DNA of 54,326 bases from Patescibacteria group bacterium (GTDB lineage Bacteria > Patescibacteriota > Minisyncoccia > Phycocordibacterales > Phycocordibacteraceae): assembly GCA_038064595.1 (NCBI GenBank), contig JBBTSV010000014.1, positions 1-54,326 of the forward strand, read 5' to 3'. The position numbers and the translations under genes are program-made. Below, in pieces: positions 3,957 to 51,484 of this stretch (positions are counted from its first letter, which is position 1; each line of letters begins with the position of its first letter). The notes under the pieces are model-generated. The model saw nothing but the letters and a program-made list of their open reading frames with translations, was not told the origin of the DNA and did not search any database.

Positions 3957-4020
3957 CTCGGCCATTTGAGACGTAGAGGGCGCGCGTGCACAAGACGTGC
4001 TGGTGCGCTAGATTTAGCCT

Positions 4021-5334
4021 ATGGACGCTCCCACACACTTCCGCGGCAAGCGTATCACCCTTATGCGGATCGGGCTTTTGGGCCGTGGGATAGGGGACGC
4101 TGCCTATCTGGCAGAGTGCGGCGCTGACGTTTTGGTGGTTGATGATGCCTCACAGGAGGTGATGCAACCCGCGGTCGATGCGTTGAAAGCGTTCAAAAAT
4201 ATTACATTCAAATTTGGCCCGTACGACCTCAACGATTTTAAAAATTGTGACCTCGTACTCAAAGGTGCGGGCACTCCAATCGACTCTCCTGAAATTGCAG
4301 AGGCGAAGAAAAATGATATTCCCGTGCGGATGAGCGCCGATCTCTTTCTAGAATCGTCAGGCGTTACGTGTGTGGGCGTCACGGGCACGCGCGGTAAGTC
4401 GACCGTGACGCACATGATTTTCGCAATTTTGAAAGAAGCAGGGAAGAAGGTGTTGCTCGGAGGCAACATTCGTGGCGTCTCCAATCTCGAGTTGCTTAAA
4501 GAAGTGACGCCAGAGCATGTTGCCGTCCTCGAGCTTGATAGCTGGCAGTGTCAGGGCTTCGGTGAGGCGCAGATGAGCCCGCACACTGCAGTCTTCACGA
4601 CCCTCTTCGCCGACCACATGAATTATTACAAGGAGGACTTGAATGCGTATCTCGCGGACAAGGCGAATATATTTCTCTACCAGCACGAAGAGGACACGCT
4701 TATACTCGGCAAGCAGTGCGCGCCCATTGTTATCGACCGCTATGGCGAGCAGATCGAGGCGCAGACGCAGGTGATCGACGAGACCAAGCTCCCGGACACG
4801 TGGATACTGAAAGTCCCAGGAATGCACAACCGCTATAACGCTGCCCTGGCGCTCGCTGCCGCTCGCGCGCTCGGCGTCGCTGACGAGGTGAGCCGCGCGG
4901 CGCTCGCGGCCTTCAGTGGCGTCCCGGGCCGCCTCGAGCTCGTGCGGGAGGTCAACGGGGTGAAGATCTACAACGACACCACAGCGACCACGCCCGAGGC
5001 GACCCTCGTCGCGCTTGCCGCGCTCGGCACCGAGCGCACGGTACTCATCATGGGTGGCAACGACAAAAATCTCGACATGACCGCGCTCATCGAGAAGGTG
5101 AAGGAGGTTAAGCACCTCGTCCTACTCGCCGGCACCGGCACGGAGCGCATTAAAGATCAGCTCGATGCAAAAGGTATGATATATCATACCTTTGCGGAAG
5201 CGGTGGCAGACGCGGTGAAGGCCGCCGCGCCGGGCGACACGATCCTCTTCTCGCCCGCCTTCACCTCGTTTGGTATGTTTAAAAACGAGTTCGACCGCGG
5301 CGACCAGTTCAATGCCCTCGTCAATGCACTATGA
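4021..5334 (+). CDS. murD: UDP-MurNAc-L-Ala--D-Glu ligase
   Basis: GVTGTRGKST, GGNI, LELDSWQ, DHMNYY, YNDTTATT, FSPAFTSFGMFKNEFDRG. Confidence 0.93.
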   Translation: MDAPTHFRGKRITLMRIGLLGRGIGDAAYLAECGADVLVVDDASQEVMQPAVDALKAFKNITFKFGPYDLNDFKNCDLVLKGAGTPIDSPEIAEAKKNDIPVRMSADLFLESSGVTCVGVTGTRGKSTVTHMIFAILKEAGKKVLLGGNIRGVSNLELLKEVTPEHVAVLELDSWQCQGFGEAQMSPHTAVFTTLFADHMNYYKEDLNAYLADKANIFLYQHEEDTLILGKQCAPIVIDRYGEQIEAQTQVIDETKLPDTWILKVPGMHNRYNAALALAAARALGVADEVSRAALAAFSGVPGRLELVREVNGVKIYNDTTATTPEATLVALAALGTERTVLIMGGNDKNLDMTALIEKVKEVKHLVLLAGTGTERIKDQLDAKGMIYHTFAEAVADAVKAAAPGDTILFSPAFTSFGMFKNEFDRGDQFNALVNAL

Positions 5335-5981
5335 ATGAAGTTGATACCAACGCGAAGATTATTTGGGACTACATGCTCATGCATCATGAGCTGCGACCGA
5401 TGGATGCAATCTTTGGACTCGGGACGCACACCACGCTGGTTGCAGAGCGTGCCGTAGATCTTTTCCTTGCCGGGTACGGTAACTACCTGATCTTTGCCGG
5501 TGAAAGCGGTGAGAAACACGGCAAGACACGTCATTTTGATAAACCTGAAGCAGAGGTATATGCGGACATTGCTCTCCAGCGCGGTGTTCCCAAGGAGAAA
5601 ATTATCATCGAAAATAAATCCACCAGCACTGGCGAAAATATACTCTTCGTCAAAAAGCTACTTGAGGATAAGAATCTCGATATACACTCATTTATTCTTG
5701 TGCAGGAACCATATATGGAGCGACGCACCTATGCGACTTTTAAGAAGCAGTGGCCAGAAGCTGAATGTGTAGTCACTTCACCAAAGATGTCATACGAATC
5801 TTGGGCCACTGAAGCTCGAAGCAAAGATCGTTTTATTGATACGATGGTAGGCGATTTACAAAGAATAAAAGAATACTCAACTCAAGGTTTTCAGATACCC
5901 CAAGAAATTCCTAACGAAGTATGGAGAGCATTTGAATATCTGGTCGCGCAAGGTTTTACTCGTCGGCTGATCAAACCGTAA
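5331..5981 (+). CDS. DUF218 (YdcF/ElyC/SanA-like) protein
   Basis: PEAEVYADIA, IIIENKSTSTGENILF, VQEPYMERR motifs; visibly more AT-rich than flanks. Confidence 0.85.
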   Translation: MNEVDTNAKIIWDYMLMHHELRPMDAIFGLGTHTTLVAERAVDLFLAGYGNYLIFAGESGEKHGKTRHFDKPEAEVYADIALQRGVPKEKIIIENKSTSTGENILFVKKLLEDKNLDIHSFILVQEPYMERRTYATFKKQWPEAECVVTSPKMSYESWATEARSKDRFIDTMVGDLQRIKEYSTQGFQIPQEIPNEVWRAFEYLVAQGFTRRLIKP

Positions 5982-5982
5982 T

Positions 5983-7254
5983 ATGAAAAAGATTCATTTT
6001 GTGGGGGTTGGAGGGATCGGGATGAGTGCTTTGGCGCAGTACTATGCTGATCATGGAGCGGAGGTGACGGGGTCAGACCGGGAGGCGAGTCCGGTGACGG
6101 AGCTGCTTCAGAAGAAGGAGATCAGGGTGGTTATCGGCCAGCAGGCAGACAACGTTCCCGCCGATGCTGAGCTGCTGGTCTACAGCGATGCGGTGCCGCC
6201 TGAGAATAGCGAGCGCGCGCGAGCGCGCGAGCTCGGGATTACCGAGCAGTCGTACTTTCAGGCGCTTGGGGCGGTGACGAAAGAGAAGAAGACCATCGCG
6301 GTCGCGGGGACCCATGGCAAGACGACCACTACGGGGATGATCGCCAAAATCCTCGCCGACGCAGGAGGGTCGCCGACCGCGATCGTCGGGTCTATTGTCA
6401 AAGACTTCGGCAGCAACTACCTGCATGGGGATTCTGAACTCTTTGTCGTTGAGGCCGACGAATATAAGGCGCATCTTCTGGAGCTCTCGCCGACTATCCT
6501 CGTGATAAATAACCTCGAGTGGGATCATACCGACTTCTACCCCTCACTCGCAGCGATGCAGGAGACGTTTAAACAGGCGATCGAGAAGGTACCCTCTGAG
6601 GGCGTCATCGTGACGAACCCTACGAATCCAAACATCGCGCCTCTTCTCGTGAATGCGAATGCAAAGGTTGTTGACTACACCAAGGAACCCTCCTACACGC
6701 TGCGGCTCCCGGGGGAATTTAATCAGAGTAATGCACGGGCGGCCGCAGCGGCCGCCCGTGCGGCGTACCCAGAAATCACTGAAGATTCTATCGCGACCTC
6801 ACTCTCCCACTTCCACGGCACGTGGCGTCGTTTTGAATATAAAGGTAAGACCGCCAAGGGTGCCGAGGTCTACGACGACTACGCGCACCACCCGACCGCT
6901 GTGCGCGAGACACTCCACGCGCTTCGCGCAAAAACAGAAGGTAAGATTATTGTCGCCTTCCACCCCCACCTCTACTCGCGCACGCGCGATCTGCTCGATG
7001 AGTTCGCCACCGCCTTTACCGATGCCGACACCGTGCTCATCGCGCCCATCTACGCAGCGCGCGAGGTCGACGACGGCAGCATCTCGAGCGAGATTCTCGC
7101 CGCGCGCATCAGTGCGACTGGCGTTGACGCACAGGCAATGAGCTTCGACGATATCGAGAAAACACTCCAAGAAGTGCCCGCAGGCGACACCATCATGACC
7201 ATGGGTGCCGGCGACATCTACAAAGTCGCCGACGATCTCGTCGCACAAAAGTAA
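5983..7254 (+). CDS. murC: UDP-MurNAc--L-Ala ligase
   Basis: IHFVGVGGIGMSALA, AGTHGKTTT, VEADEY, DDYAHHPT, FHPHLYSRT, TMGAGDI. Confidence 0.95.
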   Translation: MKKIHFVGVGGIGMSALAQYYADHGAEVTGSDREASPVTELLQKKEIRVVIGQQADNVPADAELLVYSDAVPPENSERARARELGITEQSYFQALGAVTKEKKTIAVAGTHGKTTTTGMIAKILADAGGSPTAIVGSIVKDFGSNYLHGDSELFVVEADEYKAHLLELSPTILVINNLEWDHTDFYPSLAAMQETFKQAIEKVPSEGVIVTNPTNPNIAPLLVNANAKVVDYTKEPSYTLRLPGEFNQSNARAAAAAARAAYPEITEDSIATSLSHFHGTWRRFEYKGKTAKGAEVYDDYAHHPTAVRETLHALRAKTEGKIIVAFHPHLYSRTRDLLDEFATAFTDADTVLIAPIYAAREVDDGSISSEILAARISATGVDAQAMSFDDIEKTLQEVPAGDTIMTMGAGDIYKVADDLVAQK

Positions 7255-7255
7255 T

Positions 7256-7929
7256 ATGGGTAAGCTCTCAATCGTCGCGACACCGATAGGGAATATGGAG
7301 GACATCACGCTGCGCGCTCTGCGGACGCTCAAGGAGTGTGATGTTATTTATGCCGAGGACACGCGCGTCATTTCTAAACTCCTTACGAAATACGGACATC
7401 GTAAGTCCGTATTTCGGCTTGATGCCGCAACGGAAGTAAAAAAAGCAGAAGAGATTATTGCGCGGCTCGAGGCAGGGGAGCACGTTGTTTATGTCTCTGA
7501 CGCCGGCACGCCGGGAATAAGTGATCCGGGCGCGCGCCTTGTGGCGCGGGGCCCCCCCGCGAAGCGGGCGCGACCATCGAAGCGATCCCGGGCGCTTCGG
7601 CGCTTACCGCCGCGCTTTCCATTGCTGGACTCGACACGGACCACTTCACCTTTCTTGGCTTTCTCCCACACAAAAAAGGGAGACAGACGGCGCTTGCGGC
7701 CCTCGCCGATAGCAAGATCCCCGTTGTCCTCTATGAGTCCCCGCACCGCATTTTGAAACTCTTGGAGGAGTTATCGCTTCTGGGCGAACAACGTCGCGTT
7801 GTTATAGCCCGTGAGCTCACCAAGGTGCATGAAGAAGTGCTCACGGGCACGCCTGCCGAGCTCCTCGCGCACTTCACTGCGCACCCTGACACCGTCCGCG
7901 GCGAGTTTGTGGTCATCGTGACCCCCTGA
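7256..7929 (+). pseudogene. rsmI: 16S rRNA C1402 2'-O-methyltransferase, frameshifted at a G4C7 run (real or sequencing error)
   Basis: Frame 1: VATPIGNMEDITLRA, AEDTR, VSDAGTPGISDPG; continues in another frame after 7560 as EAGATIEAIPGASA...GFLPHKKGR...YESPHR...ARELTKVHEE...GEFVVIV, TGA at 7927-7929. Confidence 0.85.
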
Positions 7930-7941
7930 TATACTTGGCTC

Positions 7942-8184
7942 ATGTCACGTACTAGTACCCTTATTCTTCTTGGCGTTTTGATTATCCTCACTCCCTATTC
8001 AGGTCTGCCGATCGCGATCCGCACCCTGCTTGAAGTCGTCTTTGGTGCGCTGGTTGCCGGTATCGGTCTCCTCATACGCACCCGTGAGATACAGAACGTG
8101 GCCTCCGCCGAGCCGCCAGCTCCCGCTCCAGAGAGCGAACGAGCCGAGCTCGAGGCGCTGCCCCAGAGCGTTTCTCCCATTTGA
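7942..8184 (+). CDS. Small two-TM membrane protein
   Basis: Two hydrophobic helices around SGLP plus acidic/Pro tail; TGATATACT 6 nt before ATG. Confidence 0.75.
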   Translation: MSRTSTLILLGVLIILTPYSGLPIAIRTLLEVVFGALVAGIGLLIRTREIQNVASAEPPAPAPESERAELEALPQSVSPI

Positions 8185-8202
8185 TTTGATATACTAAGCG
8201 CA

Positions 8203-9990
8203 ATGGAGAATCCAGAGCGCGTCACTTACTTCGCCGCGACCGACAGCCGCGGGAAGTTTGTCCCGTTCGGCATTAAGTCAAAGGACCGTGACCGTCACAT
8301 GTACGTGATCGGGAAAACCGGCATGGGCAAGTCGACCATGCTTGAGAACATGGCGATCCAAGATATTCGAAATGGTGAAGGACTCGCGTTCATCGACCCG
8401 CACGGTGGGACTATTGAGCGCCTGCTCGACTATATCCCGGAAGACCGCATCACTGATGTGGTCTACTTCGCTCCGTTCGACATGGATCACCCCATCGCGT
8501 TCAATGTGATGGAGGACGTGGGCTATGATCGCCGCCACCTCGTGGTCTCTGGCCTCATGGCCACGTTTAAGAAGATCTGGGAAGACGCGTGGAGCGCGCG
8601 TATGGAGTACATCCTCACCAACACGCTTCTGGCTCTCCTCGAGTACCCGGGCGCAACGCTCCTTGGTGTGAACCGCATGTACACCGACAAGGAGTACCGC
8701 ACCAAGGTGATCGACAATGTGAAGGATCCGGTGGTCAAAGATTTCTGGCTCAAAGAGTTTGCCAATTATGGCGACCGTTATACACAAGAAGCGACTCCTG
8801 CTATCCAAAATAAAGTCGGCCAATTTACCGGCAACCCGCTCATCCGCAACATTATCGGGCAACCCAAGTCCTCCTTTGACATTCGTACGATGATGGATGA
8901 ACGCAAGATCCTCCTCATCAACCTCTCAAAAGGGCTCATCGGAGAGACCAACATGAACCTCCTCGGCTCGATGCTCACCACCCGACTCTTCCTCGCGGCG
9001 ATGAGCCGTGCTAATGCGCCCGCTGCCGAGCTCGCCAAGCTCCCGCACTTCTACTTCTATGTGGATGAGTTCCAAAACTTTGCCAATAAGACCTTTGCCG
9101 AGATTCTTTCCGAATCCCGCAAGTATAAGCTCAATCTCGTCATCACCCACCAGTACATCGAGCAGATGGAGGAGGAGGTGCGTGATGCGGTTTTTGGCAA
9201 CGTGGGGACCACGGTCGTCTTTCGCGTTGGTCCGTTTGATGCCGAAGTCTTGGAGACGATCTTTATGCCCAAATTCACCAAAGAAGATATTGTGATTCTT
9301 GATCGACGCCAGGTCTATATCACCCTCATGATCGACGGCGTGGGCTCGGCACCCTTCTCGGCAGTGACCATTCCACCCATTGAGCCGCCGTCCGTTTCTT
9401 ACGCCAAGCAGGTCAAGGAGGCGTCGCGCGCCCACTACACCACCGCGCGTGCCACGATTGAGAACGCCATCCTTGAAGAGCTCGCGACGAGTACGGCGGC
9501 ACCTGCGCCCTTCGACGCACGAATGAAGAAGAAGCCGGTGAGCAATCAAGCGTCCGCGTCACACCCTCCGTCGGTGCGCCGCCCCGAGGCGCGCCCACCC
9601 CAGCAGCACCAGACACCTCAACCAAAGCGGCAGGAGTCGCCTCCGCGTGAGTACCCGCCTGCTCCGGCAACCAAGAGCGCTGAAGACCTGAAGGCCATTC
9701 TTCGCGCCATGACCGAGAAGCACTCGGGAGAAAAGGAGAAGCGAGAGAGCGCCCAGAAGAGCGAGCTCAAGCACACTCTGGTGGAGGTGGTTCATAAGAA
9801 TCCGCCCCCCCTAGACAATCCGCCAAGCGGATTGTCGGGCGAGCGTTCTGCACCGCAGAACGCTATAGCCGCGCCCAAGCCCGTACCGGCCGCCGCGCAG
9901 ACGCCACCCCCCGAACCTGTCTTTGAGGCAGAGCGACCATTTGAAGTCCCTGAAGAGAAGCTGAAGAAAGTGCTCAAGGGAGAGGCATAA
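8203..9990 (+). CDS. VirD4/TraG/TrwB-like (HerA/FtsK superfamily) ATPase with disordered C-terminal tail
   Basis: Walker A GKTGMGKS, FIDPHG, Walker B YVDEFQNF, SESRKY, HQYIEQ, FGNVGT. Confidence 0.88.
   Translation: MENPERVTYFAATDSRGKFVPFGIKSKDRDRHMYVIGKTGMGKSTMLENMAIQDIRNGEGLAFIDPHGGTIERLLDYIPEDRITDVVYFAPFDMDHPIAFNVMEDVGYDRRHLVVSGLMATFKKIWEDAWSARMEYILTNTLLALLEYPGATLLGVNRMYTDKEYRTKVIDNVKDPVVKDFWLKEFANYGDRYTQEATPAIQNKVGQFTGNPLIRNIIGQPKSSFDIRTMMDERKILLINLSKGLIGETNMNLLGSMLTTRLFLAAMSRANAPAAELAKLPHFYFYVDEFQNFANKTFAEILSESRKYKLNLVITHQYIEQMEEEVRDAVFGNVGTTVVFRVGPFDAEVLETIFMPKFTKEDIVILDRRQVYITLMIDGVGSAPFSAVTIPPIEPPSVSYAKQVKEASRAHYTTARATIENAILEELATSTAAPAPFDARMKKKPVSNQASASHPPSVRRPEARPPQQHQTPQPKRQESPPREYPPAPATKSAEDLKAILRAMTEKHSGEKEKRESAQKSELKHTLVEVVHKNPPPLDNPPSGLSGERSAPQNAIAAPKPVPAAAQTPPPEPVFEAERPFEVPEEKLKKVLKGEA
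9814..9836. repeat. In-frame palindromic element inside the ATPase tail
   Basis: GACAATCCGC-CAA-GCGGATTGTC perfect 10-bp stem, within LDNPPSGLSG. Confidence 0.6.
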
Positions 9991-9996
9991 GAGCCC

Positions 9997-11094: not shown

Positions 11095-11114
11095 TTTTAC
11101 CGTACTCTCTACCC

Positions 11115-11990
11115 ATGTCTGACTCAAAAACCATACTTGTCACTGGCGGTGCGGGCTTTATCGGCTCGCATCTCTGTGAGCGCCTGCATACCGAAGGGCA
11201 CCGGGTCATCTCGCTCGACAACTACTTCACCGGGAGCCGCGAGAATCATGTCTCGGGGGTCGAGTATCGCGAGGGACATGCTAAAGATATTGCACAGCTC
11301 ATTCCCGAGACACCTGATCTGGTATATCACCTCGGTGAATATTCGCGCGTTGCACAAAGCAAGGAAGAACCAGATGTCGTGTGGGATCTCAATCTTGTTG
11401 GTACCACTGCAGTTCTTGAATACTGTCGCAAGAAAAAGGTAAAGCTCGTGTATGCGGGCTCTTCGACTAAGTTTGCTAATGAGCGCGCTGATGGCACCGC
11501 CGGCCGCGACCTCTCGCCCTATACGTGGGCAAAGGCGGTCAACACCGAGCTCGTGAAGAATTATGGCGCGTGGTATGACGTGCCCTACGCGACCGCCTAT
11601 TTCTATAATGTCTATGGTCCGCGCGAGCTCTCTGGGAAGTACGGCACCGTGATCGAGCTCTTCAAGCAGAAGTATCTCGCGGGCGAACCGCTCCCGGTCA
11701 ACAGCCCGGGCACTCAGACGCGCACCTACACCCACGTACTCGATACGATCGATGCGCTTATGCTCATTGGTAAGCACGGCGCGAGTGAGGAGTACGGCAT
11801 CTCTTCAGACGACACCTACTCGACAAGAGAAGTTGCGGATCTCTTTGGTGGCGAGATCGTGATGATGCCAGCACGCGCAACTAGCCGCCCCTCTACCCCG
11901 ACCGATAATAGCGCCGCGCGCGCACTCGGCTGGGTACCGAAGCGCTCCCTCAAGGAGTATATCGAGGCGTGCAAAGTGGCCCGGGCATGA
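11115..11990 (+). CDS. NAD-dependent sugar epimerase/dehydratase
   Basis: TGGAGFIGSH, SPYTWAK (YxxxK), NVYGP. Confidence 0.9.
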   Translation: MSDSKTILVTGGAGFIGSHLCERLHTEGHRVISLDNYFTGSRENHVSGVEYREGHAKDIAQLIPETPDLVYHLGEYSRVAQSKEEPDVVWDLNLVGTTAVLEYCRKKKVKLVYAGSSTKFANERADGTAGRDLSPYTWAKAVNTELVKNYGAWYDVPYATAYFYNVYGPRELSGKYGTVIELFKQKYLAGEPLPVNSPGTQTRTYTHVLDTIDALMLIGKHGASEEYGISSDDTYSTREVADLFGGEIVMMPARATSRPSTPTDNSAARALGWVPKRSLKEYIEACKVARA

Positions 11991-13749: not shown

Positions 13750-13766
13750 CATAGTAAGCTTGCCGT

Positions 13767-16190: not shown

Positions 16191-16260
16191 AGGGGAAATC
16201 TACCATATCTGTAACCTGTGCCTGCGACGATTAGATGCAGAAACGGGTTAGAATAGGGGT

Positions 16261-23276: not shown

Positions 23277-23374
23277 CTACCTATGGTACTGGTTACCTGC
23301 CGCTTCTGCCAGTGCCCCTCGACGAGGGGTGCGCGGCTTTCAAAAACGAGCGAAGAGGTATACTATGCGACCTA

Positions 23375-36039: not shown

Positions 36040-36087
36040 GGGCGCCGTTGTTACTTTCAGTGAGTTGTAGACGTTATACTAAGGGCT

Positions 36088-40263: not shown

Positions 40264-40323
40264 AGGGAACAGTATAGCGTTTCGTGAGAAGAAGCTCTAT
40301 CTTTGGGAGTATACTACCTCCTA

Positions 40324-41961
40324 ATGAAAGAGGCGTTGTACAGACTGATCCGACACCTGTCAGTCGAAACGGTTCTCGTTGCCCTTTTTGGGTTGAGCTT
40401 TTTCATCGGCATTTGGTATGCGCTCCCGATGGTAAACACGGTTACCGACGTGTGGGCATTTGGTGGGGGTGTTCTGCGGGCGATGGAAGACCATTCGTTA
40501 CTTCCCGGTTATGGCGTTGCCTATGGGACACTCTCGTTTTACCAAAATTATATAGCGATGGTGGTGGTGCTTCTTTTCGCCCTGCCTTTTTTCGGTTTTA
40601 ACTTTGCCGCGTTAAAAACGGCACTCATTCTTAATCCGTCATACACACTGCTGGTGCCGCGTATGGTGTCCGCAGTGACCGCGGTAGTATTTTTGGGCGT
40701 CGTTTACCACTTTCTCAAGCGTGAAGTCCCTTCAGTATCCTGGCGAGTTGCACTGCTTGTGCTTGCGTTCGGTAACGTCCTGGCTACGATTTTGGTGCGT
40801 TCAGGAAAGATGTGGATTCTATCAACTACCCTCTGCATCGTGTCTTTTATATATGCGTATCGAGCTATTACGGAGGAAGCCCCCAAGGGCAAACCGGGTG
40901 TTTTTTCTGTGGTGTCCATATTTTCAGCGTTTCTCGCAGCCGCAAATTTTGCATTCGCCGGCCTCTTCCTTATCAACCTACCCATTTTTATATATGTATT
41001 TCCGAAGACACGAGAGGTGTTCATACGGCTCGCTACAGCCGTCGCTGGTGGGGTAGCTCTCTTTGTAGCGATATCCGCGCTGAACGCCGCGAATGTCATA
41101 GAACAAGTCTCTGCGTTTGCCGGTTCGCTTTTGGGAACACCGGGAAATATCGGAAATGGCGTGACGATGTTGTCATTTACTGAGGCATTTGCGGTAAATG
41201 CACGCCAAGCAATCGAGGCATTCCCGCTCCTTCTGGTCGCCCTCGTGGTTGTGGCATGGTATGGCGTACGCAATAAGACGCTCGCTCTTCTTGCGGCGCT
41301 ATACGCCGTGTTGTATATGTTAGCCCTCTCTGCTGTTTTTCGAGTTGATGACGGAGTCGCGCTCAATATACGACATGTGTTTCCGGTGGGCTTTTTTCTC
41401 ATGTGTATACTCGCGTCATGTAGGCCCCCCGCAAGATTCATTTCTTACGTTTTTGCCACCGTTGGACTAGTTGTATACGTATACAGCGTTATGCTCCTCT
41501 CATTTCCGACGACCTATAACCGCATGCTAGACCATGTCGTCAGTCGTTATAGCGATGCTCATATCAGAATAGACGAAAGCGTGTTTGAGCTGACGCTACC
41601 GATGAACAAGGAATCATACCTGCTTCACGGCACCTCTTCGTGTGGTTCTGCATGCACGCACGCCCTCGCATTGCCGAGAGATATAGCTTTTAGCCCTATT
41701 GTCGTTACGCATGATGCGGATCCTGAACGAGTAGCTCTCATACCACACCCAGATCTGTTTATCTCTTCGTCCGGTATTGATGGGTGCACCCCTCTCGCTC
41801 GTTTCGGCAACGAAGTCTCAGATGATGCTGTTTTTGACATAGACATCAATCTCGGACGCATGTTGATGCCTGAATTCTATGGGCTACGTATGCTGGGGAA
41901 GAACTTATATCTCTATGATGCACACTCGTGCACCCCACCGCCGTATGCCGTGCGACAGTGA
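40324..41961 (+). CDS. Polytopic membrane protein (possible GT-C fold)
   Basis: About 11 hydrophobic segments plus soluble C-terminus; glycan-locus context. Confidence 0.65.
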   Translation: MKEALYRLIRHLSVETVLVALFGLSFFIGIWYALPMVNTVTDVWAFGGGVLRAMEDHSLLPGYGVAYGTLSFYQNYIAMVVVLLFALPFFGFNFAALKTALILNPSYTLLVPRMVSAVTAVVFLGVVYHFLKREVPSVSWRVALLVLAFGNVLATILVRSGKMWILSTTLCIVSFIYAYRAITEEAPKGKPGVFSVVSIFSAFLAAANFAFAGLFLINLPIFIYVFPKTREVFIRLATAVAGGVALFVAISALNAANVIEQVSAFAGSLLGTPGNIGNGVTMLSFTEAFAVNARQAIEAFPLLLVALVVVAWYGVRNKTLALLAALYAVLYMLALSAVFRVDDGVALNIRHVFPVGFFLMCILASCRPPARFISYVFATVGLVVYVYSVMLLSFPTTYNRMLDHVVSRYSDAHIRIDESVFELTLPMNKESYLLHGTSSCGSACTHALALPRDIAFSPIVVTHDADPERVALIPHPDLFISSSGIDGCTPLARFGNEVSDDAVFDIDINLGRMLMPEFYGLRMLGKNLYLYDAHSCTPPPYAVRQ

Positions 41962-42029: not shown

Positions 42030-44225
42030 ATGAAGCAGACAAAGGTTGAGGAGGTATCGGTTGATACGACTGCAAAAAATGTCGCGCGCTGGGTCGCGCT
42101 CGGGGCGCTGTTCCTTCTCCCACTCATGCCGCTTATGGTGGCCAACTCCTACTTCTTCCCGTTCATCACCGGCAAGGCGTTTTATTTCCGCATTCTGGTT
42201 GAGATAGCGTTTGCCGCATGGGTAGTGCTCGCCTTTTTGGATAAGGCGTATCGTCCGCGCTTCTCCTGGGTTGGGACCTTGGTGCTCGCCTTTGTCGTGT
42301 GGATGGGTATCGCTGACGCATTTGCCATAAATGCCCAGAAGGCATTCTGGAGCAACTTCGAGCGTATGGAGGGGTGGGTCCTTCTGGTACACGCACTCGG
42401 TTTCTTTGTCGCGGCGGGTGCCGTGCTGCGGGTGGAGGAAAAGTGGCGAGCATGGTTTCTCACCATGCTCGGTGTCTCTTCGGTCATTGTTATCTATGCG
42501 CTCTTTCAAATCAATGGCTCTCTCGCGATTCATCAAGGGTCAACACGCATTGATGCTACCCTTGGCAACTCGTCATATCTCGCGGTCTACTTGTTGCTCA
42601 GCGTGGGGATCGCGGTATGGCTCGCTCTTACCGAGCAGCGTCACTGGCTCCGTTGGCTTCTTATAGGTTTGGCAACCATTGAAGGAGTCTTGGTGATTTT
42701 TACTGAAACGCGCGGAGCGGTGATTGGGCTTGCCGTGGGACTCGCGCTCGCGGCAATACTTACCGCGCTTACCGCGGGGAAACAGGCGCGTCGAGTGGCG
42801 GTCGTTGGCCTGCTTATGCTGACGGTTGTGGTCGGGGGGCTGTACGTTGCGCGTAACTCCGATGCCGTAAAGAACAATTCAACACTGCGGCGTGTCACCT
42901 CTATCTCGCTTAATGACGGAGCGACGCGCTTCACACTCTGGAACATGGCATGGCAAGGTACGCTCGAGCGGCCACTTATTGGGTGGGGGCAGGAGGGGTA
43001 CAACTATATATTCAATAAGTACTACGAGCCAAGTTTGTATAAACAGGAGCAGTGGTTTGATCGTGCCCACAACACATTTATTGATTGGCTCGTTGCGGGC
43101 GGATTCCCTGCATTCTTCCTCTACATCGCACTCTTTGTCTCGGCGATGATCGCGCTCTGGCGGCACTCAAACCTCTCGCGACCCGAGCGGATCGTGCTTA
43201 CCGCCGCTCTGGTGGGGTACGCAATCCACAATTTCTTTGTGTTCGATAATCTGGTCTCCTATCTCTATTTCTTTGCGATTCTCGCACTCATTGACTCTCA
43301 AGTTGCACGTCCTTTTCCTCGTCTTGAGAGAGCACCGACTCTTGCAGGGGAGGCAGGGCTTACCATGGCGCTCCCGGTGGCGACCGTTCTCCTCATTGTC
43401 ACGGTATGGGTTGTTAATGTACCGGGGATGCAGGTGGCGGGTAAAATCATCACGGCACTCTCCTCACAGCAGGTTGAAACCATTACGGCAACGTTCCAAG
43501 ATCTTGCGCTCAATCCTGCGTTTGCAGCGCAAGAGGTGCGCGAGCAGATTGTGAACTTCGCCGCATCAGCTGCGCAGAGCACCCAGCTCTCGGATGAACA
43601 GAAACAGCAGATAGCCGCACTGGCGGTGACCGAGATACAGAAACAAATTAAAGCGTATCCGCTCGACGCACGACAACACCTTCAGCTCGCGTACGTGTAC
43701 CGTTCATTTGGCGTCTATGATGAGGCACTGAAAGCTATGGAACAGGCGAACGCCCTGTCACCTAAAAAGATTGATATGTACCTTCTACGAGGGATCACCG
43801 CGTGGGATAAGGGGGACACCCAGTTCGCCAGAGAGATGTTTACCACCGCGTATACACTCGCACCGCAGTTTACCGACCTCGCCGAGTACGCTGCCGCGGG
43901 GGAGCTTGCTGCGGGCAACGTTACCGCCGCCGACGCTATTTTAACCACCGCATTCGGGACCACCACAGTCGACAGTAATATACTGGCGACTGCGTACTAC
44001 CGCGCTCGCAACTGGCCTCGCCTTATCGCACTCTGGGAGCGTCGGGTCGCTGCGCCGGACGCGACGGTACAACACTGGTTCTCACTTGCCGCCGCCTACT
44101 ACACGGCGGGAGCCAACGCGCAAGCTATTGCGATACTTACCGAGGCAGGGAAGCGGTTCCCTGATGCTGCTGAATCCGTACGTGAGGCAATCAAGCAGGT
44201 GCAGGGTGCAGCGAATGTTCAATGA
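42030..44225 (+). CDS. O-antigen ligase / O-oligosaccharyltransferase family (Wzy_C) with TPR repeats
   Basis: SNFERMEG, TLGN, TETRGA, RPLIGWG, FDRAHN...GG; C-terminal TPR-like helices. Confidence 0.87.
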   Translation: MKQTKVEEVSVDTTAKNVARWVALGALFLLPLMPLMVANSYFFPFITGKAFYFRILVEIAFAAWVVLAFLDKAYRPRFSWVGTLVLAFVVWMGIADAFAINAQKAFWSNFERMEGWVLLVHALGFFVAAGAVLRVEEKWRAWFLTMLGVSSVIVIYALFQINGSLAIHQGSTRIDATLGNSSYLAVYLLLSVGIAVWLALTEQRHWLRWLLIGLATIEGVLVIFTETRGAVIGLAVGLALAAILTALTAGKQARRVAVVGLLMLTVVVGGLYVARNSDAVKNNSTLRRVTSISLNDGATRFTLWNMAWQGTLERPLIGWGQEGYNYIFNKYYEPSLYKQEQWFDRAHNTFIDWLVAGGFPAFFLYIALFVSAMIALWRHSNLSRPERIVLTAALVGYAIHNFFVFDNLVSYLYFFAILALIDSQVARPFPRLERAPTLAGEAGLTMALPVATVLLIVTVWVVNVPGMQVAGKIITALSSQQVETITATFQDLALNPAFAAQEVREQIVNFAASAAQSTQLSDEQKQQIAALAVTEIQKQIKAYPLDARQHLQLAYVYRSFGVYDEALKAMEQANALSPKKIDMYLLRGITAWDKGDTQFAREMFTTAYTLAPQFTDLAEYAAAGELAAGNVTAADAILTTAFGTTTVDSNILATAYYRARNWPRLIALWERRVAAPDATVQHWFSLAAAYYTAGANAQAIAILTEAGKRFPDAAESVREAIKQVQGAANVQ

Positions 44226-45517: not shown

Positions 45518-45553
45518 CGACCAGTGAGAACGAAAATGCTATAGTGGCTAGCG

Positions 45554-48073
45554 ATGCTCGGACTCTCCCGCCTTTTCTCGAAGAATCAGTCGGCTGCGTT
45601 TATCCGTGCCGCCGCGCCGGTTGTGGATGCTGTCCGCACACACGGCGAAGAGCTTGTCGGCCTCTCCCAGGAGACGCTGAAAGAGCGTCTCGCAGTTGTG
45701 CGGGCGCGAACACAGCAAGCAGGGGCTCCTCGTGAGGAGGACCTCCCGCTCGTTTTTGCTCTGGTACGTGAGGCGGCAAAGCGGACACGTCGTGAAGAAC
45801 ATTTTGACGTTCAGATCATTGGCGGACTCGCGATGGCGCAGGGCAAAATCGCCGAGATGCGCACCGGAGAAGGGAAGACCTTGGTCGCGACCTTACCCGC
45901 AACCTACCATGCACTTGCTGGGAAAGGCGTGCACGTGGTGACGGTGAACGATTACCTTGCACGTCGCGATACAACATGGATGGGGCAGGTCTACGAGTAT
46001 CTCGGTCTTACCGTTGGCGTGGTGACCTCAACCGGATCATATCGATACGATGCGTCGCATGTCGCACCAACCGAAGATACAGAGCGTGACAACGAGGGTT
46101 CATTTAAGGTGTTCTATGATTACTTACGTCCGGCGACAAAGCAGGAGGCGTATGCTGCCGATATCACCTACGTGACAAACAACGAGCTCGGATTTGACTA
46201 TCTTCGTGACAATACTGCCTACCTTCCCTCTCAGATTGTGCAGCGCAGCCATGCCTACGCGATTATCGACGAGGTTGACTCAATCCTGATCGATGAGGCG
46301 CGTACCCCGCTGATTATTTCAGGCCCAGCTGGCGACTCACAAAACCTCTACGAACGTTTTGCGCAGATTGTAGCCTCATTTGTAGCCACAGAGGACTACA
46401 CGGTCGACGAAAAACAGAAGGCCATCCAGATCACCGAGGCCGGTATGCACAAGGCAGAGACTGCGCTGGGTCTTGAAAATCTATATACCGAAGGGGGGAT
46501 GAAGTATGCCCACCATCTTGAGACGGCGGTGCGCGCGCTCGCACTGTTCCAGAAAGATAAGGAGTATGTGGTGCAGAACAATGAAGTGGTTATTGTGGAT
46601 GAGTTTACGGGAAGAATGCAGCCGGGGCGACGCTGGTCGGAGGGGCTTCACCAGGCGATCGAGGCGAAGGAGGGGGTTCGTGTTCAGGAGGAGACGCGGA
46701 CGTTTGCGACCGTTACCTTTCAGAACCTCTTTCGTATGTATGAGCGTCTTGCGGGTATGACCGGCACAGCTCTCTCCTCCGAAGAAGAGTTTTATACCGT
46801 CTATAAACTGGAGGTCGTCGCTATACCAACGAATAAGCCGTCAGCCCGCAAAGATCACGATGATCTCATTTTTCAAACGGCGGCAGGGAAGTACCGTGCC
46901 GTTGCGCGCGCCGTTGCTGAGCGACACACTCGTGGTCAGCCCGTTCTTGTGGGTACTGTTTCGATTGAAGATAATGAAACGGTGAGTGCGTATCTCGCGG
47001 AAGCGGGTATTCCCCATGAAGTGCTGAACGCGAAGAATCATGAACGAGAGGGAGAGATCATAGCTGAAGCAGGGAAGGAGGGTCGGGTGACCGTAGCGAC
47101 TAATCTCGCTGGTCGCGGTGTCGATATTAAGCTCGGGGGCGCGCTCGCGACGGCCGAAGAGCGTGCCGCGGTGGTGGCTTCGGGAGGGCTCTCGGTCGTT
47201 GGGACCGAGCGTCATGATGCGCGCCGCATCGATAACCAGTTGCGCGGTCGCTCGGGACGGCAAGGAGATCCCGGCGAGACGAGATTCTATGTCTCTCTTG
47301 AGGATAAGCTCATGCGTGTCTTTGCGTCGGATACATTGAAGCGGGTCATGGGCCGATTCGGTATCCCTGAAGATGAGCCGATTGAGAGCGCCCTTATTAC
47401 ACGCTCCCTCGAGACGGCTCAAGGGCGTATCGAAGGGTTCAATTTTGATGCACGCAAGCAGGTGCTTGCCTACGACAATGTGATGAATACCCAGCGCATC
47501 GCCATGTACGCGCGTCGCCGTGCGGCGCTTGTCGGATCACCAGACGAAGTAGAGACATTGGTGCGTACTTTGATCAGTTCAATCCCTGATGCATCAGCGG
47601 TTATGGATACAAAGAAGAGTGAGCTCGGGGAGGCCTTCCCTGACCACCTGCGTCGTCTCGTACTCCAGATTATTGACACATTCTGGCTTGAGCACCTCGA
47701 GACGATGGATTATCTCCGCCGTTCAGTCTCTCTCCGGGCCTATGGACAGCGTGATCCGTTAATTGAGTACCGTCGTGAAGGGTTGGTGCGGTTCCGTCTT
47801 CTTGAGGAACAGATCACACAAGCGATCGCTGCGGCGTTGCCACACATGCATGCAACCGACACAACGGGTATGCGCCCTGAAGAGGAGAAGATTCGTGCGG
47901 CCGCAGTTAATGCGGGGAAAGAGGAACAGGGTAGTGCCCCAATCGTCAAAACAGCGGGGTATGGACGAAACGATTTTGTAACAATCAGCAACGGCGAGGA
48001 GACCAAGACCGTGAAATTTAAAAAAGCAGAGCCACTTATTGCACAGGGGTGGGAAATCGTTCGCGGTGTCTAA
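45554..48073 (+). CDS. secA: Preprotein translocase ATPase SecA
   Basis: AEMRTGEGKT, VTVNDYLA, IIDEVDSILIDEARTPLIISG, TNLAGRGVDI, QLRGRSGRQGDPG. Confidence 0.97.
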   Translation: MLGLSRLFSKNQSAAFIRAAAPVVDAVRTHGEELVGLSQETLKERLAVVRARTQQAGAPREEDLPLVFALVREAAKRTRREEHFDVQIIGGLAMAQGKIAEMRTGEGKTLVATLPATYHALAGKGVHVVTVNDYLARRDTTWMGQVYEYLGLTVGVVTSTGSYRYDASHVAPTEDTERDNEGSFKVFYDYLRPATKQEAYAADITYVTNNELGFDYLRDNTAYLPSQIVQRSHAYAIIDEVDSILIDEARTPLIISGPAGDSQNLYERFAQIVASFVATEDYTVDEKQKAIQITEAGMHKAETALGLENLYTEGGMKYAHHLETAVRALALFQKDKEYVVQNNEVVIVDEFTGRMQPGRRWSEGLHQAIEAKEGVRVQEETRTFATVTFQNLFRMYERLAGMTGTALSSEEEFYTVYKLEVVAIPTNKPSARKDHDDLIFQTAAGKYRAVARAVAERHTRGQPVLVGTVSIEDNETVSAYLAEAGIPHEVLNAKNHEREGEIIAEAGKEGRVTVATNLAGRGVDIKLGGALATAEERAAVVASGGLSVVGTERHDARRIDNQLRGRSGRQGDPGETRFYVSLEDKLMRVFASDTLKRVMGRFGIPEDEPIESALITRSLETAQGRIEGFNFDARKQVLAYDNVMNTQRIAMYARRRAALVGSPDEVETLVRTLISSIPDASAVMDTKKSELGEAFPDHLRRLVLQIIDTFWLEHLETMDYLRRSVSLRAYGQRDPLIEYRREGLVRFRLLEEQITQAIAAALPHMHATDTTGMRPEEEKIRAAAVNAGKEEQGSAPIVKTAGYGRNDFVTISNGEETKTVKFKKAEPLIAQGWEIVRGV

Positions 48074-48120
48074 TTGGCAGCAGTAGAGTTTTGTGTCGAA
48101 ATGTGATACGCTAGAGCGTA

Positions 48121-49092
48121 ATGGCATTTGTCGATGAGGCGACTATTCACGTTGCGGCTGGAAACGGCGGTGATGGTGTGATTCGTTGGTTGCGCACAAA
48201 AGAGACTGCGCGGGGTGGACCATCGGGCGGAGACGGAGGTCGTGGTGGGGATGTGATACTTGTGGGAGTGCGTGATCTCGCCGCGCTCGCACGCTATCGC
48301 TACGAGAAAAAATTTCATGCTGAGCATGGAGAAGCGGGAAAGGGAGAGCTCAAGCACGGCAGCAATGGCGCGGACCTTCTTCTGTCGGTGCCTGTTGGCA
48401 CGCTTGTGCGCAAGATTGAAACGGGAGAAGAATATGAGATTACGCAAGAAGATGAACGTCTCCCTCTTTTTCGTGGGGGGTATGGAGGACTTGGCAATGC
48501 GCGCTTTAAAAGCTCAACGAACCAGAACCCTTTTCAGCAGACCAAAGGAAAAAAGGGGAAGGGTGGGGATATCCACCTGACACTCAAGATTATCGCCGAC
48601 GCAGGACTTGTCGGGCTTCCGAACGCTGGAAAGTCATCTCTCATCAACGCGCTTACCCGAGCCAAGTCCAAGGTAGGTGCCTATCCCTTCACCACGCTTG
48701 AGCCGCACCTCGGAGAGTTCCATGGATACATTCTCGCCGATATCCCCGGTCTTATAGAGGGAGCATCGAGCGGTCGCGGACTTGGCACCAAATTTCTCAA
48801 ACATGTTGAAAGGACAGGTTTTTTGCTACATCTTGTCTCGGCTGAACAAGATGACCCGTATCAAGCATATAGGGAAGTGCGCAAAGAGCTTGAATCCTCC
48901 ACAGGAGATCTCACTGCCAAGCGGGAAATCATTATCCTCTCAAAAGTAGACCTTATCTCTCCTCAGGAAGCCAAGACGAGGGCTACCCTCCTTGAAAAAG
49001 AGACCGGGAGGGAAGTACTCATGGTCACCACGGAGGACCCGGTGATTCTCAAGAAGTTTGCAGATCGACTCTCACAAATTCTCGCCGCATAA
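48121..49092 (+). CDS. obgE: GTPase Obg (no C-terminal extension)
   Basis: FVDE...AGNGGDG, GLVGLPNAGKS, YPFTTL, ADIPGLIEGA. Confidence 0.95.
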   Translation: MAFVDEATIHVAAGNGGDGVIRWLRTKETARGGPSGGDGGRGGDVILVGVRDLAALARYRYEKKFHAEHGEAGKGELKHGSNGADLLLSVPVGTLVRKIETGEEYEITQEDERLPLFRGGYGGLGNARFKSSTNQNPFQQTKGKKGKGGDIHLTLKIIADAGLVGLPNAGKSSLINALTRAKSKVGAYPFTTLEPHLGEFHGYILADIPGLIEGASSGRGLGTKFLKHVERTGFLLHLVSAEQDDPYQAYREVRKELESSTGDLTAKREIIILSKVDLISPQEAKTRATLLEKETGREVLMVTTEDPVILKKFADRLSQILAA

Positions 49093-49130: not shown

Positions 49131-49138
49131 TAGAGTAA

Positions 49139-50551
49139 ATGGCTTACTATCCAACCATCGGACTTGAGATTCACGCTGAGCTCAAGACGCAGACCAAGAT
49201 GTTTTGCGATTCGCGGAATGATCCGGACGAAACGCGCCCAAACGTTAACGTATGTCCCGTGTGCCTTGCCCACCCAGGGACGCTCCCTGTTATCAATCAA
49301 GTCGCGGTACACCACGTACTACGGATCGGTGCGGCAGTCGGAGGGACACGTGCCGACTTCAGCGAGTTCGATCGAAAGAGCTACTTTTATCCTGATATCC
49401 CAAAGGGGTATCAGATCAGTCAGTATGAGCATCCCCTTGTGAAGGGCGGCACGCTTGCTGGAGTTGCGATCACACGGGTTCATCTCGAAGAGGATACCGC
49501 ACGTTCCACTCACGCTGGCGGAGAGAGTCTTGTCGATTTCAATCGTGCGGGCATTCCGCTCATGGAGTTGGTAACCGAGCCGGTCATTCATGACCCAGAG
49601 ACGGCGGGTCATTTCGCGCGTGAGCTGCAACTTCTCCTGAGAACGCTCGGAGCGAGTGAGGCCAATCTCGAGAAAGGGGAGATGCGTATCGAAGCAAATA
49701 TCTCTGTTTCTCCGGGGGAAAGCACGTTTGGTACAAAAGTAGAGATCAAGAATTTGAACTCGTTCCGTTCGGTTGAACGGGCGATCGCCTTCGAGATCGA
49801 ACGTCAAAGCACGCTCATCGACGAAGGGGGTACGGTGGTACAAGAGACCCGGGGCTGGGACGAAAGCAAGCAGGTTACCTTTCACCAGCGGTTTAAAGAA
49901 GGGAGCGCGGACTATCGTTATTTTCCAGAGCCAGACCTGCCGAAGCTTCGCCTCTCCGAGATGTCTATATTTACCCATGAGGCGCTTCGAGCATCGCTCC
50001 CAGAACTTCCCGAAGAACGTCGTGCACGGTATGCTCGCGAGTACCAGTTGCGTGAGAGTGATATCGATTACCTCACTGCAACACCTGAACGCGCGGCGTT
50101 TTTTGACGCAGTGGCGTCAGCGCTCGCGCCCGATACGACGACGCTCGCGCTCGCGGCTAATTATGTTGTATCGGACCTGGCCGGGATCTATACCAAAAAG
50201 GGGAGCGAAGCGTATGCCACACTTGACCCGCATGCTTTCGCAAAACTCATCATGCTCGCTAAGGGTCAAAAAGTGTCTTCCCGGGGCGCAAAGGACACCC
50301 TTGTACTTCTGGTTGAACACGGAGGCGATCCAGAAAAACTTGCTGAAGAAGCTGGTCTCATGCAGTCGCATGATAGCGAACACCTGCGAGCGGTCGTACG
50401 TACTGTTCTAGTAGAGGAGCAGAAGGCAGTTGCCGAGTATCATAGCGGCAAGGAGGCCGCTATCCAGTACCTTGTTGGAAAGTGCATGAAAGCAACTAAA
50501 GGCTCTGGGAACCCGACCCTCCTACGAGACCTTATTCTTAGTGAGATATAG
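49139..50551 (+). CDS. gatB: Asp/Glu-tRNA amidotransferase subunit B
   Basis: IGLEIHAEL, CPVCLAHPGTLP, FDRKSYFYPD, HLEED, DFNRAG, EIKNLNS, DYRYFPEPD. Confidence 0.96.
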   Translation: MAYYPTIGLEIHAELKTQTKMFCDSRNDPDETRPNVNVCPVCLAHPGTLPVINQVAVHHVLRIGAAVGGTRADFSEFDRKSYFYPDIPKGYQISQYEHPLVKGGTLAGVAITRVHLEEDTARSTHAGGESLVDFNRAGIPLMELVTEPVIHDPETAGHFARELQLLLRTLGASEANLEKGEMRIEANISVSPGESTFGTKVEIKNLNSFRSVERAIAFEIERQSTLIDEGGTVVQETRGWDESKQVTFHQRFKEGSADYRYFPEPDLPKLRLSEMSIFTHEALRASLPELPEERRARYAREYQLRESDIDYLTATPERAAFFDAVASALAPDTTTLALAANYVVSDLAGIYTKKGSEAYATLDPHAFAKLIMLAKGQKVSSRGAKDTLVLLVEHGGDPEKLAEEAGLMQSHDSEHLRAVVRTVLVEEQKAVAEYHSGKEAAIQYLVGKCMKATKGSGNPTLLRDLILSEI

Positions 50552-50638
50552 AAGTGGATGGTTGTGAGTTATGCGCGTTATGCACCACTTTAAATCAAAG
50601 CTCTTCCAAACAAGCCGAGATATGACTATACTAAAGCC

Positions 50639-51484
50639 ATGGACGAGATTCTTATAGACGAAAGAAAATATGTATCGTCAAAGCGAGCCGCAAAAATAAC
50701 CGGTTACGCAAAGGACTATATAGGGCAACTTTGTAGAGAAGGCCGAGTCCCCGCACGTCTTGTTGGTCGGAGTTGGTATGTCCTCGAGTCTGCCATAGAG
50801 GACCATCGATTTGGTGAAAAAGTAGAGAGAGAGCCACAGATAAAGGAAATGAAAGAAAAAAGTGATGAAAGTCTCACGCTACGCTCGACCTGGGAGTCCC
50901 CGCATTATGAGGCAACTCAAACCGAAGTACTTCCGTCAATCAATCGACTGAAAAATCCACCCACAACCCCTCCAGAAGGCTCAAAAATGCCCCAGGAAAC
51001 GATTGAAGATCAAAGAGGTGTTATAGAGCACCTCCAAAACTCATGGAAAGAGTGGTTTGATCGAACGGTCAAAGATGAAGAAGTTCAAGAACAACAATAT
51101 GATTCAAGACCTGACGAACTATCTGTAGAGCAGACGACACCAACACACCCAGAAATGGGCGTCATAATGGACGAAGGGGAAGTCGCCATACCGGTGCATA
51201 CAATCTATGATCTCCCACCGCAAGATTTGCTCCCTCACCACAGCAGTCGGATAGAAATAGTGGAACCTGAGGAGATCTCAAAGCCCGCAGAGCCAGAGCT
51301 CGCACCGGTCCAGAGGAGAAAATTTAAGCGTGGAGCCCTCTATCGTGCATTTATAACTTTCGTTCTCTTGGCAACATTCGCTATCGCAGGGATCTCGGTG
51401 CTTGGATCCGGTTTTATAGATTACATTTTATTCTCGCACACACGCGCTGGCTATATTTCTGGTTTTTCAGTCTACATAAAATAA
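50639..51484 (+). CDS. Excisionase/MerR-like HTH protein with acidic linker and C-terminal TM
   Basis: YVSSKRAAKITGYAKDYIGQLCREGRVPARLVGRSWYV; TM AFITFVLLATFAIAGISVLGSGF. Confidence 0.85.
   Translation: MDEILIDERKYVSSKRAAKITGYAKDYIGQLCREGRVPARLVGRSWYVLESAIEDHRFGEKVEREPQIKEMKEKSDESLTLRSTWESPHYEATQTEVLPSINRLKNPPTTPPEGSKMPQETIEDQRGVIEHLQNSWKEWFDRTVKDEEVQEQQYDSRPDELSVEQTTPTHPEMGVIMDEGEVAIPVHTIYDLPPQDLLPHHSSRIEIVEPEEISKPAEPELAPVQRRKFKRGALYRAFITFVLLATFAIAGISVLGSGFIDYILFSHTRAGYISGFSVYIK

Follow-up and report, generated by a model that had tools for sequence, protein, structure and literature searches.

How does a bacterium whose 16S rRNA has lost the core of its anti-Shine–Dalgarno (anti-SD) sequence find its start codons? 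This question is raised by the 54,326-nucleotide (nt) contig JBBTSV010000014.1, which was analyzed over its whole length and is called the window below; it is contig C14 of a draft genome (G000) of 670,881 bases in 14 contigs with a completeness rating of 99.44%. A first reading, made from the sequence alone, had noticed a TAnnnT hexamer shortly before many start codons of the window, had taken it for a −10 promoter box that puts the transcription start on the ATG, and had proposed that leaderless initiation together with reinitiation replaces Shine–Dalgarno (SD) initiation. We followed this hexamer through the genome and into related genomes, and our analysis makes it likely that extended −10 promoters are fused to start codons, so that roughly half of the transcription units would yield leaderless mRNAs. 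SecA, encoded in the window, is 73–82% identical to proteins of Candidatus Kaiserbacteria, Paceibacterota or Parcubacteria metagenome-assembled genomes (MAGs), and the organism is therefore a bacterium of the Candidate Phyla Radiation (CPR), class Paceibacteria; the genome is a Candidatus Kaiserbacteria MAG, from a small groundwater bacterium.

A TAnnnT box lies 6 to 8 nt upstream of start codons

We defined the box as TAnnnT and the spacer as the number of nucleotides between its last T and the A of the ATG. A simple caller based on dicodons gave 683 genes, which cover 88.9% of the genome, and starts were placed by rules blind to the motif: the first start, the first ATG, or the start with the best coding score. 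All 17 window sites listed in the sequence-only reading carry the box 6 to 8 nt upstream of the ATG (spacer 6, 7 and 8 at 11, 3 and 3 sites, respectively), and the TG prefixes given there are present before the boxes.

4009..4023, +, TAGATT, 6-nt spacer, ATG of a Mur-ligase gene (motif read and Pfam)
7927..7944, +, TGA-TATACT extended −10, 6-nt spacer, ATG of an open reading frame (ORF) of 80 aa (motif read)
8187..8205, +, TGA-TATACT extended −10, 7-nt spacer, ATG of a TrwB/TraG-like coupling-protein gene (motif read and Pfam)
11103..11117, +, TACTCT, 6-nt spacer, ATG of an NAD-dependent epimerase gene (Pfam profile from residue 7)
13755..13769, +, TAAGCT, 6-nt spacer, ATG of an inositol-monophosphatase-family gene (motif read and Pfam)
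16188..16202, −, TAGATT with TGG in front, 6-nt spacer, ATG 16190, divergent from 16261 with the ATGs 70 nt apart
16249..16263, +, TAGAAT, 6-nt spacer, ATG of a GT4 glycosyltransferase gene (motif read and Pfam)
23274..23288, −, TACCAT, 6-nt spacer, ATG 23276 of a polysaccharide-biosynthesis (flippase-like) gene (motif read and Pfam)
27804..27818, +, TAGACT, 6-nt spacer, ATG of a C-methyltransferase gene (Pfam profile from residue 9)
31077..31091, −, TATACT, 6-nt spacer, ATG 31079 of a 98-aa ORF (motif read)
31141..31155, +, TATACT with TGC in front, 6-nt spacer, ATG 31153 (motif read)
36075..36090, +, TATACT, 7-nt spacer, ATG of asparagine synthase, AsnB (motif read and Pfam)
40261..40276, −, TATACT, 7-nt spacer, ATG 40263 of a GtrA-family gene, divergent from 40324 with the ATGs 60 nt apart
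40310..40326, +, TATACT, 8-nt spacer, ATG 40324 (motif read)
45537..45556, +, TGC-TATAGT extended −10, 8-nt spacer, ATG of secA (motif read, Pfam and relatives' loci)
48104..48123, +, TGA-TACGCT, 8-nt spacer, ATG of obg (Pfam profile from residue 4)
50627..50641, +, TATACT, 6-nt spacer, ATG 50639 (motif read)

The sequence-only reading had expected a positional peak of TAnnnT upstream of starts, and across the genome this peak is present, well above background. When 674 genes were scored from their first ATG, the box stood at spacers 6, 7 and 8 in 122, 73 and 47 genes, against 5–16 genes at each of spacers 13–39 and against 0.1–1.7% per position at 2951 internal in-frame ATGs, which served as the control. 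A motif-blind “naive” choice of start gave a box at 232 of 683 genes in the genome and at 21 of 48 in the window; the comparison rates were 1.8% at 7609 internal candidate starts and ∼1.9% per position at greater distances upstream of leading genes. The bare pattern TAnnnT-N6-8-ATG, counted anywhere in the window, was not significantly enriched (54 vs 45.4 ± 7.6 in 100 first-order Markov simulations), and over the whole genome it was (671 vs 452 ± 18 in 10 simulations), with an excess of ∼220 that equals the number of box-bearing gene starts. The share of genes with a box ranged from 0.25 to 0.50 per contig, except for C10 with 0.10; mis-binned contigs as the source of the signal were rejected because the box share is uniform across contigs.

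The box has the anatomy of a promoter and marks leading genes

The 305 boxes that we aligned have the consensus TAtAcT, with TATACT as the most frequent hexamer (n = 69), and TG occupies positions −3/−2 relative to the hexamer in 103 of them, where base composition leads us to expect ∼6%. The −35 signal, sought as a hexamer at 16–19 bp, is weak, at least four of six consensus positions being matched in 70 of 305 boxes versus ∼45 expected. Start codons of the box-bearing genes comprise 264 ATG, 31 GTG and 10 TTG, and the genome holds four matches to sigma-70 region 4. The box thus looks like a sigma-70 extended −10 promoter, TGnTAtAcT, with a weak −35. A spacer of 6 would put the predicted +1 on the A of the ATG, a placement that the geometry supports; the earlier interpretation of the hexamer as a −10 box accordingly stands, at the level of predicted promoter anatomy and distance.

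The box is a feature of leading genes. We counted a gene as leading when it was divergent from, or more than 10 nt away from, its upstream neighbor, and as internal when it lay at most 10 nt from a codirectional neighbor. At spacers of 6–8, 205 of 430 leading genes have a box (47.7%), compared with ∼5.6% expected from the background rate; at spacers of 5–12 the count rises to 249 of 430 (57.9%). Among internal genes it is 21 of 236 (8.9%).

Of the 84 divergent gene pairs, 28 have a box on both sides. In seven of these the start codons are merely 17–26 nt apart, and the gap consists of overlapping −10 boxes that are partly palindromic. The seven pairs, given as contig and positions of the two starts in G000, are as follows.

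C1:42420/42442
C6:21450/21471
C9:29252/29273
C9:64235/64259
C12:14127/14150
C8:10592/10619
C5:54434/54452

At C12:14127/14150 the entire 22-nt gap is palindromic around AGTATACT. Because boxes fill these 17–26-nt gaps, there is no space for a leader, and the short divergent gaps look like bidirectional leaderless promoters.

Starts agree with protein families and boxes are conserved in relatives

We then asked how far the starts themselves could be trusted. Pfam profiles begin at residues 1–9 in the box-bearing SecA, Obg, epimerase, C-methyltransferase and inositol monophosphatase. The N terminus of AsnB reads M-C-G, in keeping with ATG 36088 as its start, because amidotransferases of this class have a catalytic Cys at the N terminus. 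At the secA loci of relatives whose N terminus could be aligned, TAnnnT occurs at spacer 5–9 in 49 of 58, mainly as TGnTATAnT with spacer 8, and the flanks diverge. For 19 leaderless-type genes, orthologous N termini in the loci of close relatives had a box at 124 of 160 sites, compared with 26 of 139 orthologous sites for a set of 28 other genes. The box is therefore conserved gene by gene in relatives.

The 16S rRNA tail has changed and SD motifs are scarce

The window itself contains the end of the 16S rRNA gene.

950..1093, +, 16S rRNA 3′ end (helix 44/45 region and tail), downstream of an intron (identity and conserved site)
1076..1080, +, TATCC where the 16S of other-class CPR genomes has the anti-SD core CCTCC (tails compared by eye)

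A pattern search placed the conserved 16-nt 16S site at 1033–1048. Region 950–1093 is 93–99% identical to the 3′ ends of full-length 16S genes of the same genus (98.6% over 145 nt to one of them), and the tail at 1070–1080 reads GGAACATATCC. Rfam returned no small-subunit rRNA match in genome or window because only ∼145 nt of 16S follow the intron at the contig edge. The loss of CCUCC claimed in the sequence-only reading is thus borne out, TATCC standing in its place, and classical SD:anti-SD pairing is therefore not available. None of the 12 readable same-genus tails, which are alike in all 12 cases, and none of the seven readable same-order tails has CCTCC; replacement of the anti-SD core is thus shared by this genome and every one of these 19 relatives. 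CCTCC was found in 8 of 30 tails of a class-wide sample and in 29 of 30 of a phylum-wide sample.

We scored SD 4-mers at −17 to −4 of the starts in this genome. They precede 21 of 305 box-bearing genes (6.9%), 11 of 184 box-less genes lying within 10 nt of the upstream gene (6.0%) and 34 of 184 box-less leading genes (18.5%); the control value at 3069 internal ATGs is 11.9%. The predicted absence of SD motifs thus holds for the leaderless and the coupled classes, which lie at or below background. Ribosomal protein uL1 (PF00687) had no match in this genome (a 99.44% complete draft, in which absence is no proof), and a control was found in 14 of 14 genomes. bS21 was not found in this genome either.

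Window 1–949 is part of an insertion in the 16S gene, inside which the contig begins; it contains a group-II-intron-like D1–D4 element at 301–412 (48.9 bits) and a LAGLIDADG homing-endonuclease ORF at 365–880 (E 1.9e-20). A tRNA-Ile(GAT) gene follows at 1905–1978, with no 23S gene after it in the window.

Most internal genes start at or beside the upstream stop

The sequence-only reading had also stated that most internal genes overlap or abut the upstream stop. All 10 of the starts it listed do so, eight as 4-nt ATGA overlaps and two as TAA-t-ATG with a 1-nt gap.

5331..5334, +, ATGA overlap, Mur ligase to DUF218 gene
5979..5985, +, TAA-t-ATG, 1-nt gap, DUF218 gene to murC-like gene (start 5983)
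7252..7258, +, TAA-t-ATG, 1-nt gap, to TP_methylase gene (start 7256; Pfam profile from residue 3)
11987..11990, +, ATGA overlap, epimerase to GT4 glycosyltransferase
17343..17346, +, ATGA overlap, glycosyltransferase genes
18260..18263, +, ATGA overlap, glycosyltransferase genes
29042..29045, +, ATGA overlap, C-methyltransferase to NDP-hexose 2,3-dehydratase
29782..29785, +, ATGA overlap, dehydratase to GFO/IDH/MocA oxidoreductase
32735..32738, +, ATGA overlap, two sugar-nucleotide enzyme genes
44222..44225, +, ATGA overlap, O-antigen-ligase-like gene to murB

Pair counts extend this statement to the box-less internal genes of the whole genome: of 498 codirectional pairs, 45–49 have a 4-nt overlap and 93–98 a gap of 0–10 nt. 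The overlap habit is ordinary, and the unusual part is the absence of SD motifs at the overlaps; in 20 of 24 groups of prokaryotes, as reported by Huber et al. (PMC6728339), an SD precedes the downstream gene in ∼50% or more of overlapping pairs, and Bacteroidetes are the group in which SD serves neither de novo initiation nor overlaps.

The nucleotide directly before the start codon (position −1) is skewed in the coupled genes. At gaps of 0–10 nt it is T in 65% and G in 1% of cases genome-wide (e.g., window 5979–5985 and 7252–7258); box-bearing genes have T in 43%, and internal in-frame ATGs have T in 21% and G in 41%. A milder excess of T(−1) is seen in every CPR group sampled. In E. coli, U(−1) has been proposed to pair with A37 of the initiator tRNA.

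The window encodes mainly envelope and glycan enzymes (Mur ligases, MurB, GT4 and GT2 glycosyltransferases, NDP-sugar enzymes and an O-antigen-ligase-like protein) together with SecA, Obg, GatB and AsnB, at a GC content of ∼0.55. Two genes amid the envelope genes (window 8203–11094) encode a TrwB/TraG-like type IV coupling protein and, after it, a protein with ComEA-like HHH and PKD domains.

The box peak occurs in all CPR groups sampled, and the SD signal forms a gradient

To compare genomes on equal terms we used a caller-free metric: for ORFs no shorter than 120 aa, the presence of TAnnnT at spacer 6–8 of the first ATG. The genome under study scored 23.6% against a background of 3.6%. Loci of relatives gave similar values: 18.8% versus 3.6% in 50 loci with SecA at least 73% identical, 19.9% versus 4.0% in 12 loci with SecA 65–71% identical, and 21.8% versus 5.6% in 15 loci with SecA 54–60% identical. 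Three non-CPR loci had no box peak (4.5% vs 5.1%), and SD 4-mers there reached 51.7%.

We compared box and SD signals with the state of the tail in 28 genomes, sampled at 20–100 kb each; the samples are small, the genomes are related and the metric is crude. Other classes had an SD signal of ∼8% per position at spacers 5–7. Eight CCTCC-bearing Paceibacteria gave 4.0% at spacer 6 (475 ORFs; uneven from one genome to the next), eight Paceibacteria with replaced tails gave ∼4% at spacers 7–8, and the genus and order of the Kaiserbacteria stood at background. A scenario in which SD use was lost before the tail, suggested by four CCTCC-bearing Paceibacteria without an SD peak, was dropped when eight genomes gave a modest peak. 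In small stretches of G224 (L200), G257 (L191–L193) and G253 (L210), whose tails have no CCTCC, SD-like 4-mers nevertheless precede 24–54% of ORFs, and these motifs make it harder to tie SD use simply to the state of the tail.

A leaderless model and the observations that weigh against it

We propose that RNA polymerase starts at, or within 1–2 nt of, the A of the AUG at box-bearing leading genes, so that the mRNA would be leaderless, and that ribosomes would engage the 5′-terminal AUG without SD pairing, by analogy with Actinobacteria, Deinococcus and archaea. Most internal genes begin no more than 10 nt from the stop codon upstream and lack SD motifs; these would be read by ribosomes that have just terminated. 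Geometry and the absence of SD incline us toward such termination–reinitiation, with less assurance than we have for the leaderless mRNAs themselves.

Several observations weigh against this model. A listing of sequencing runs that contain this DNA, 15 from five studies, includes none recorded as RNA. Between 42 and 52% of leading genes have no box, 181 of 430 when spacers of 5–12 are admitted, and the subtilase gene (ATG 2088), with TATACT ∼37 nt upstream and no SD, probably has a leadered, SD-less mRNA (window 2040–2090). The 184 box-less leading genes show a peak of SD-like 4-mers, 43 at spacer 5–8 against ∼2.5 per other position, and 21 of these genes have GGAGG, AGGAG or AAGGA despite the altered 16S tail. 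The genome encodes a four-domain bS1 and IF3, whose presence leaves leadered initiation possible. A spacer-6 peak of 8–12% occurs in every CPR category, including the CCTCC-bearing genomes of other classes (pooled samples), which counts against a one-to-one tie with anti-SD loss. Overlap or abutment of genes, by a crude caller-free ORF metric, has a share of 0.149 in this genome versus 0.119 in SD-using CPR, and on this ground we rejected coupling as a special feature. The dicodon caller is imperfect, having missed the start at 7256 and chosen an upstream TTG instead of ATG 31153. A permissive start rule, accepting any candidate start within 60 codons, yields a box for 306 of 683 genes, a count that is inflated by false picks such as the downstream GTGs at 31911 and 49259 and that we did not use as an estimate.

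The genes that retain an SD include a gyrB-like gene (C9:75893–77953) and window 13244–13705. When the set is broadened to the 46 genes that have an SD 4-mer at spacer 4–10, mean GC is 0.579 versus 0.555 and the coding score is lower (p = 0.01); both values hint at a foreign origin, and SD-retaining genes were possibly acquired.

The system-level claims of the sequence-only reading consequently stand in part. Replacement of SD initiation by leaderless initiation and reinitiation fits the background level of SD and the boxes found before roughly every second leading gene, but the word is too strong in view of the box-less leading genes, and a residue of genes keeps an SD-like motif. The anticipated correlation with the anti-SD state across the CPR is present as a gradient in SD signal; there is no one-to-one tracking, the leaderless peak appearing in all categories. 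That leaderless use explains the loss of CCUCC agrees with the loss itself and with the trend, and the causal tie, set against the spacer-6 peak of CCTCC-bearing CPR genomes, may or may not hold.

We hold a bolder proposal only tentatively and lean somewhat against it: in Kaiserbacteria, and perhaps in much of the anti-SD-less Paceibacteria, there would be no SD:anti-SD pairing at all, every initiation being 5′-AUG loading or reinitiation helped by U(−1), and a CPR-wide leaderless habit would have come first and made the anti-SD dispensable. If this is true, the series from SD-using CPR through weak-SD Paceibacteria to tail-less Kaiserbacteria would serve for studying the loss of a core ribosome–mRNA contact.

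Alternative explanations

We were concerned that the peak could be an artefact of start-codon choice or base composition, since the window-only count of the bare pattern is not significant and the permissive rule raises counts. The peak persists under all three motif-blind start rules, the caller-free ORF metric shows it as well, the excess is significant genome-wide, the non-CPR control loci lack it, and Pfam N termini agree with the starts; we regard the chance of an artefact as negligible. A second possibility is that TAnnnT is no promoter but part of the mRNA, where ribosomes would recognize it as a non-SD binding signal of the “group B” type (known from Bacteroidetes, for instance), for example through bS1 or by base pairing to the changed end of the 16S rRNA. 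The anti-SD core is gone and another recognition could have evolved, bS1 is encoded, and the element is AU-rich and sits at a fixed distance. Ribosome-binding motifs of group B, as described in PMC6028130, precede initial and internal genes alike; here the box divides leading from internal genes (47.7% vs 8.9%). Its TG extension (103/305) lies where an extended −10 has it, relatives with different tails share the same box before secA, and palindromic boxes serve both strands in the 17–26-nt divergent gaps. Inspection of the tail GGAACATATCCAATTGGAACC revealed no complement to TATACT, and pairing of the box with the new tail was rejected for this want of complementarity. Together these points make a ribosome-binding signal very improbable.

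More plausible, yet still unlikely in our judgment, is that the boxes are mostly secondary or internal promoters and that longer, leadered transcripts, translated independently of SD through bS1 or unstructured leaders, supply most of the protein. In 55 of 80 genes with gaps of 11–30 nt the box lies inside the end of the upstream gene, so that read-through probably coexists with initiation at the box; the box-less leading genes and the presence of bS1 and IF3 point the same way. An ATG kept at the predicted +1 in 124 of 160 orthologous sites and 49 of 58 secA loci would be unexpected if the leaderless form were unimportant, and the 17–26-nt divergent gaps offer no other promoter space outside coding sequence. 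We therefore favor promoters fused to start codons.

The fused promoters, if real, have practical consequences. Gene callers that expect a ribosome-binding site (RBS) will misplace starts in such MAGs, whereas the −10/ATG rule yields exact N termini and promoter positions for uncultured organisms, and constructs for reporter assays or expression in CPR bacteria should be leaderless. The pattern also suggests an order of events in the loss of a conserved rRNA function, which is testable on thousands of public CPR genomes.

Comparison with known systems

The closest counterpart is the GeneMarkS-2 “group C” of Actinobacteria and Deinococcus–Thermus. In these genomes, among them that of M. tuberculosis, as PMC6028130 describes them, a Pribnow box lies 6–8 nt before the starts of first operon genes and 25–50% of transcripts are predicted to be leaderless; we find the same geometry, at 47.7–57.9% of leading genes. 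Group C genomes differ in that their internal and leadered genes are described as using an RBS and the anti-SD is kept, whereas here SD is missing internally, at 6.0% of coupled genes versus 11.9% in the control, and the core is replaced. The genome is thus best described, from its predicted promoters, as leaderless-rich and of group C type, without SD at internal genes and with an altered rRNA tail. No CPR name appears in the main text or in five supplement files of PMC6028130, one further supplement file lying outside this count.

Haloarchaea and Sulfolobus resemble it in a high leaderless fraction combined with coupled, overlapping genes (PMC6728339); their promoters are archaeal, with a box ∼26 nt upstream, and according to PMC6728339 they use SD amply for reinitiation at overlaps. 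In our genome SD is below background there. Bacteroidetes keep the anti-SD, and their mRNAs are leadered with an A-rich context. By comparison, the tail of the present genome has changed and its mRNAs look leaderless. The likeness to Bacteroidetes lies in the rarity of SD, below 10% at leading and overlapping genes in PMC6728339 and 6–7% here.

The short divergent gaps recall the bidirectional promoters of E. coli and Salmonella, for which PMC10268837 reports divergent transcription start sites 7–25 bp apart and overlapping, symmetrical −10 elements. The 17–26 nt between the ATGs of our seven pairs match that range; both products would here be leaderless protein mRNAs, and the spacing is ∼20–23 nt against an 18-bp optimum.

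On the side of the ribosome, Tsurumaki et al. (2022, PMC9297842) found the anti-SD motif in merely 48% of Parcubacteria, its absence overlapping a group without uL1. Our genome, without CCTCC and with uL1 not found, resembles that subgroup. The consequence for initiation is left open in the portion of that article available to us, where the word “leaderless” has no occurrence, and the predicted promoter-at-ATG architecture is the new piece, offering a concrete, testable answer to what replaces the anti-SD in Parcubacteria. Our full-text literature searches found no paper describing leaderless architecture in CPR, Patescibacteria or Parcubacteria or linking leaderless genes to anti-SD loss, and in papers containing both words “leaderless” was confined to reference lists or to YchF. 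Both components are known, leaderless genomes from group C and anti-SD loss from Parcubacteria; it is their combination in this lineage that looks new.

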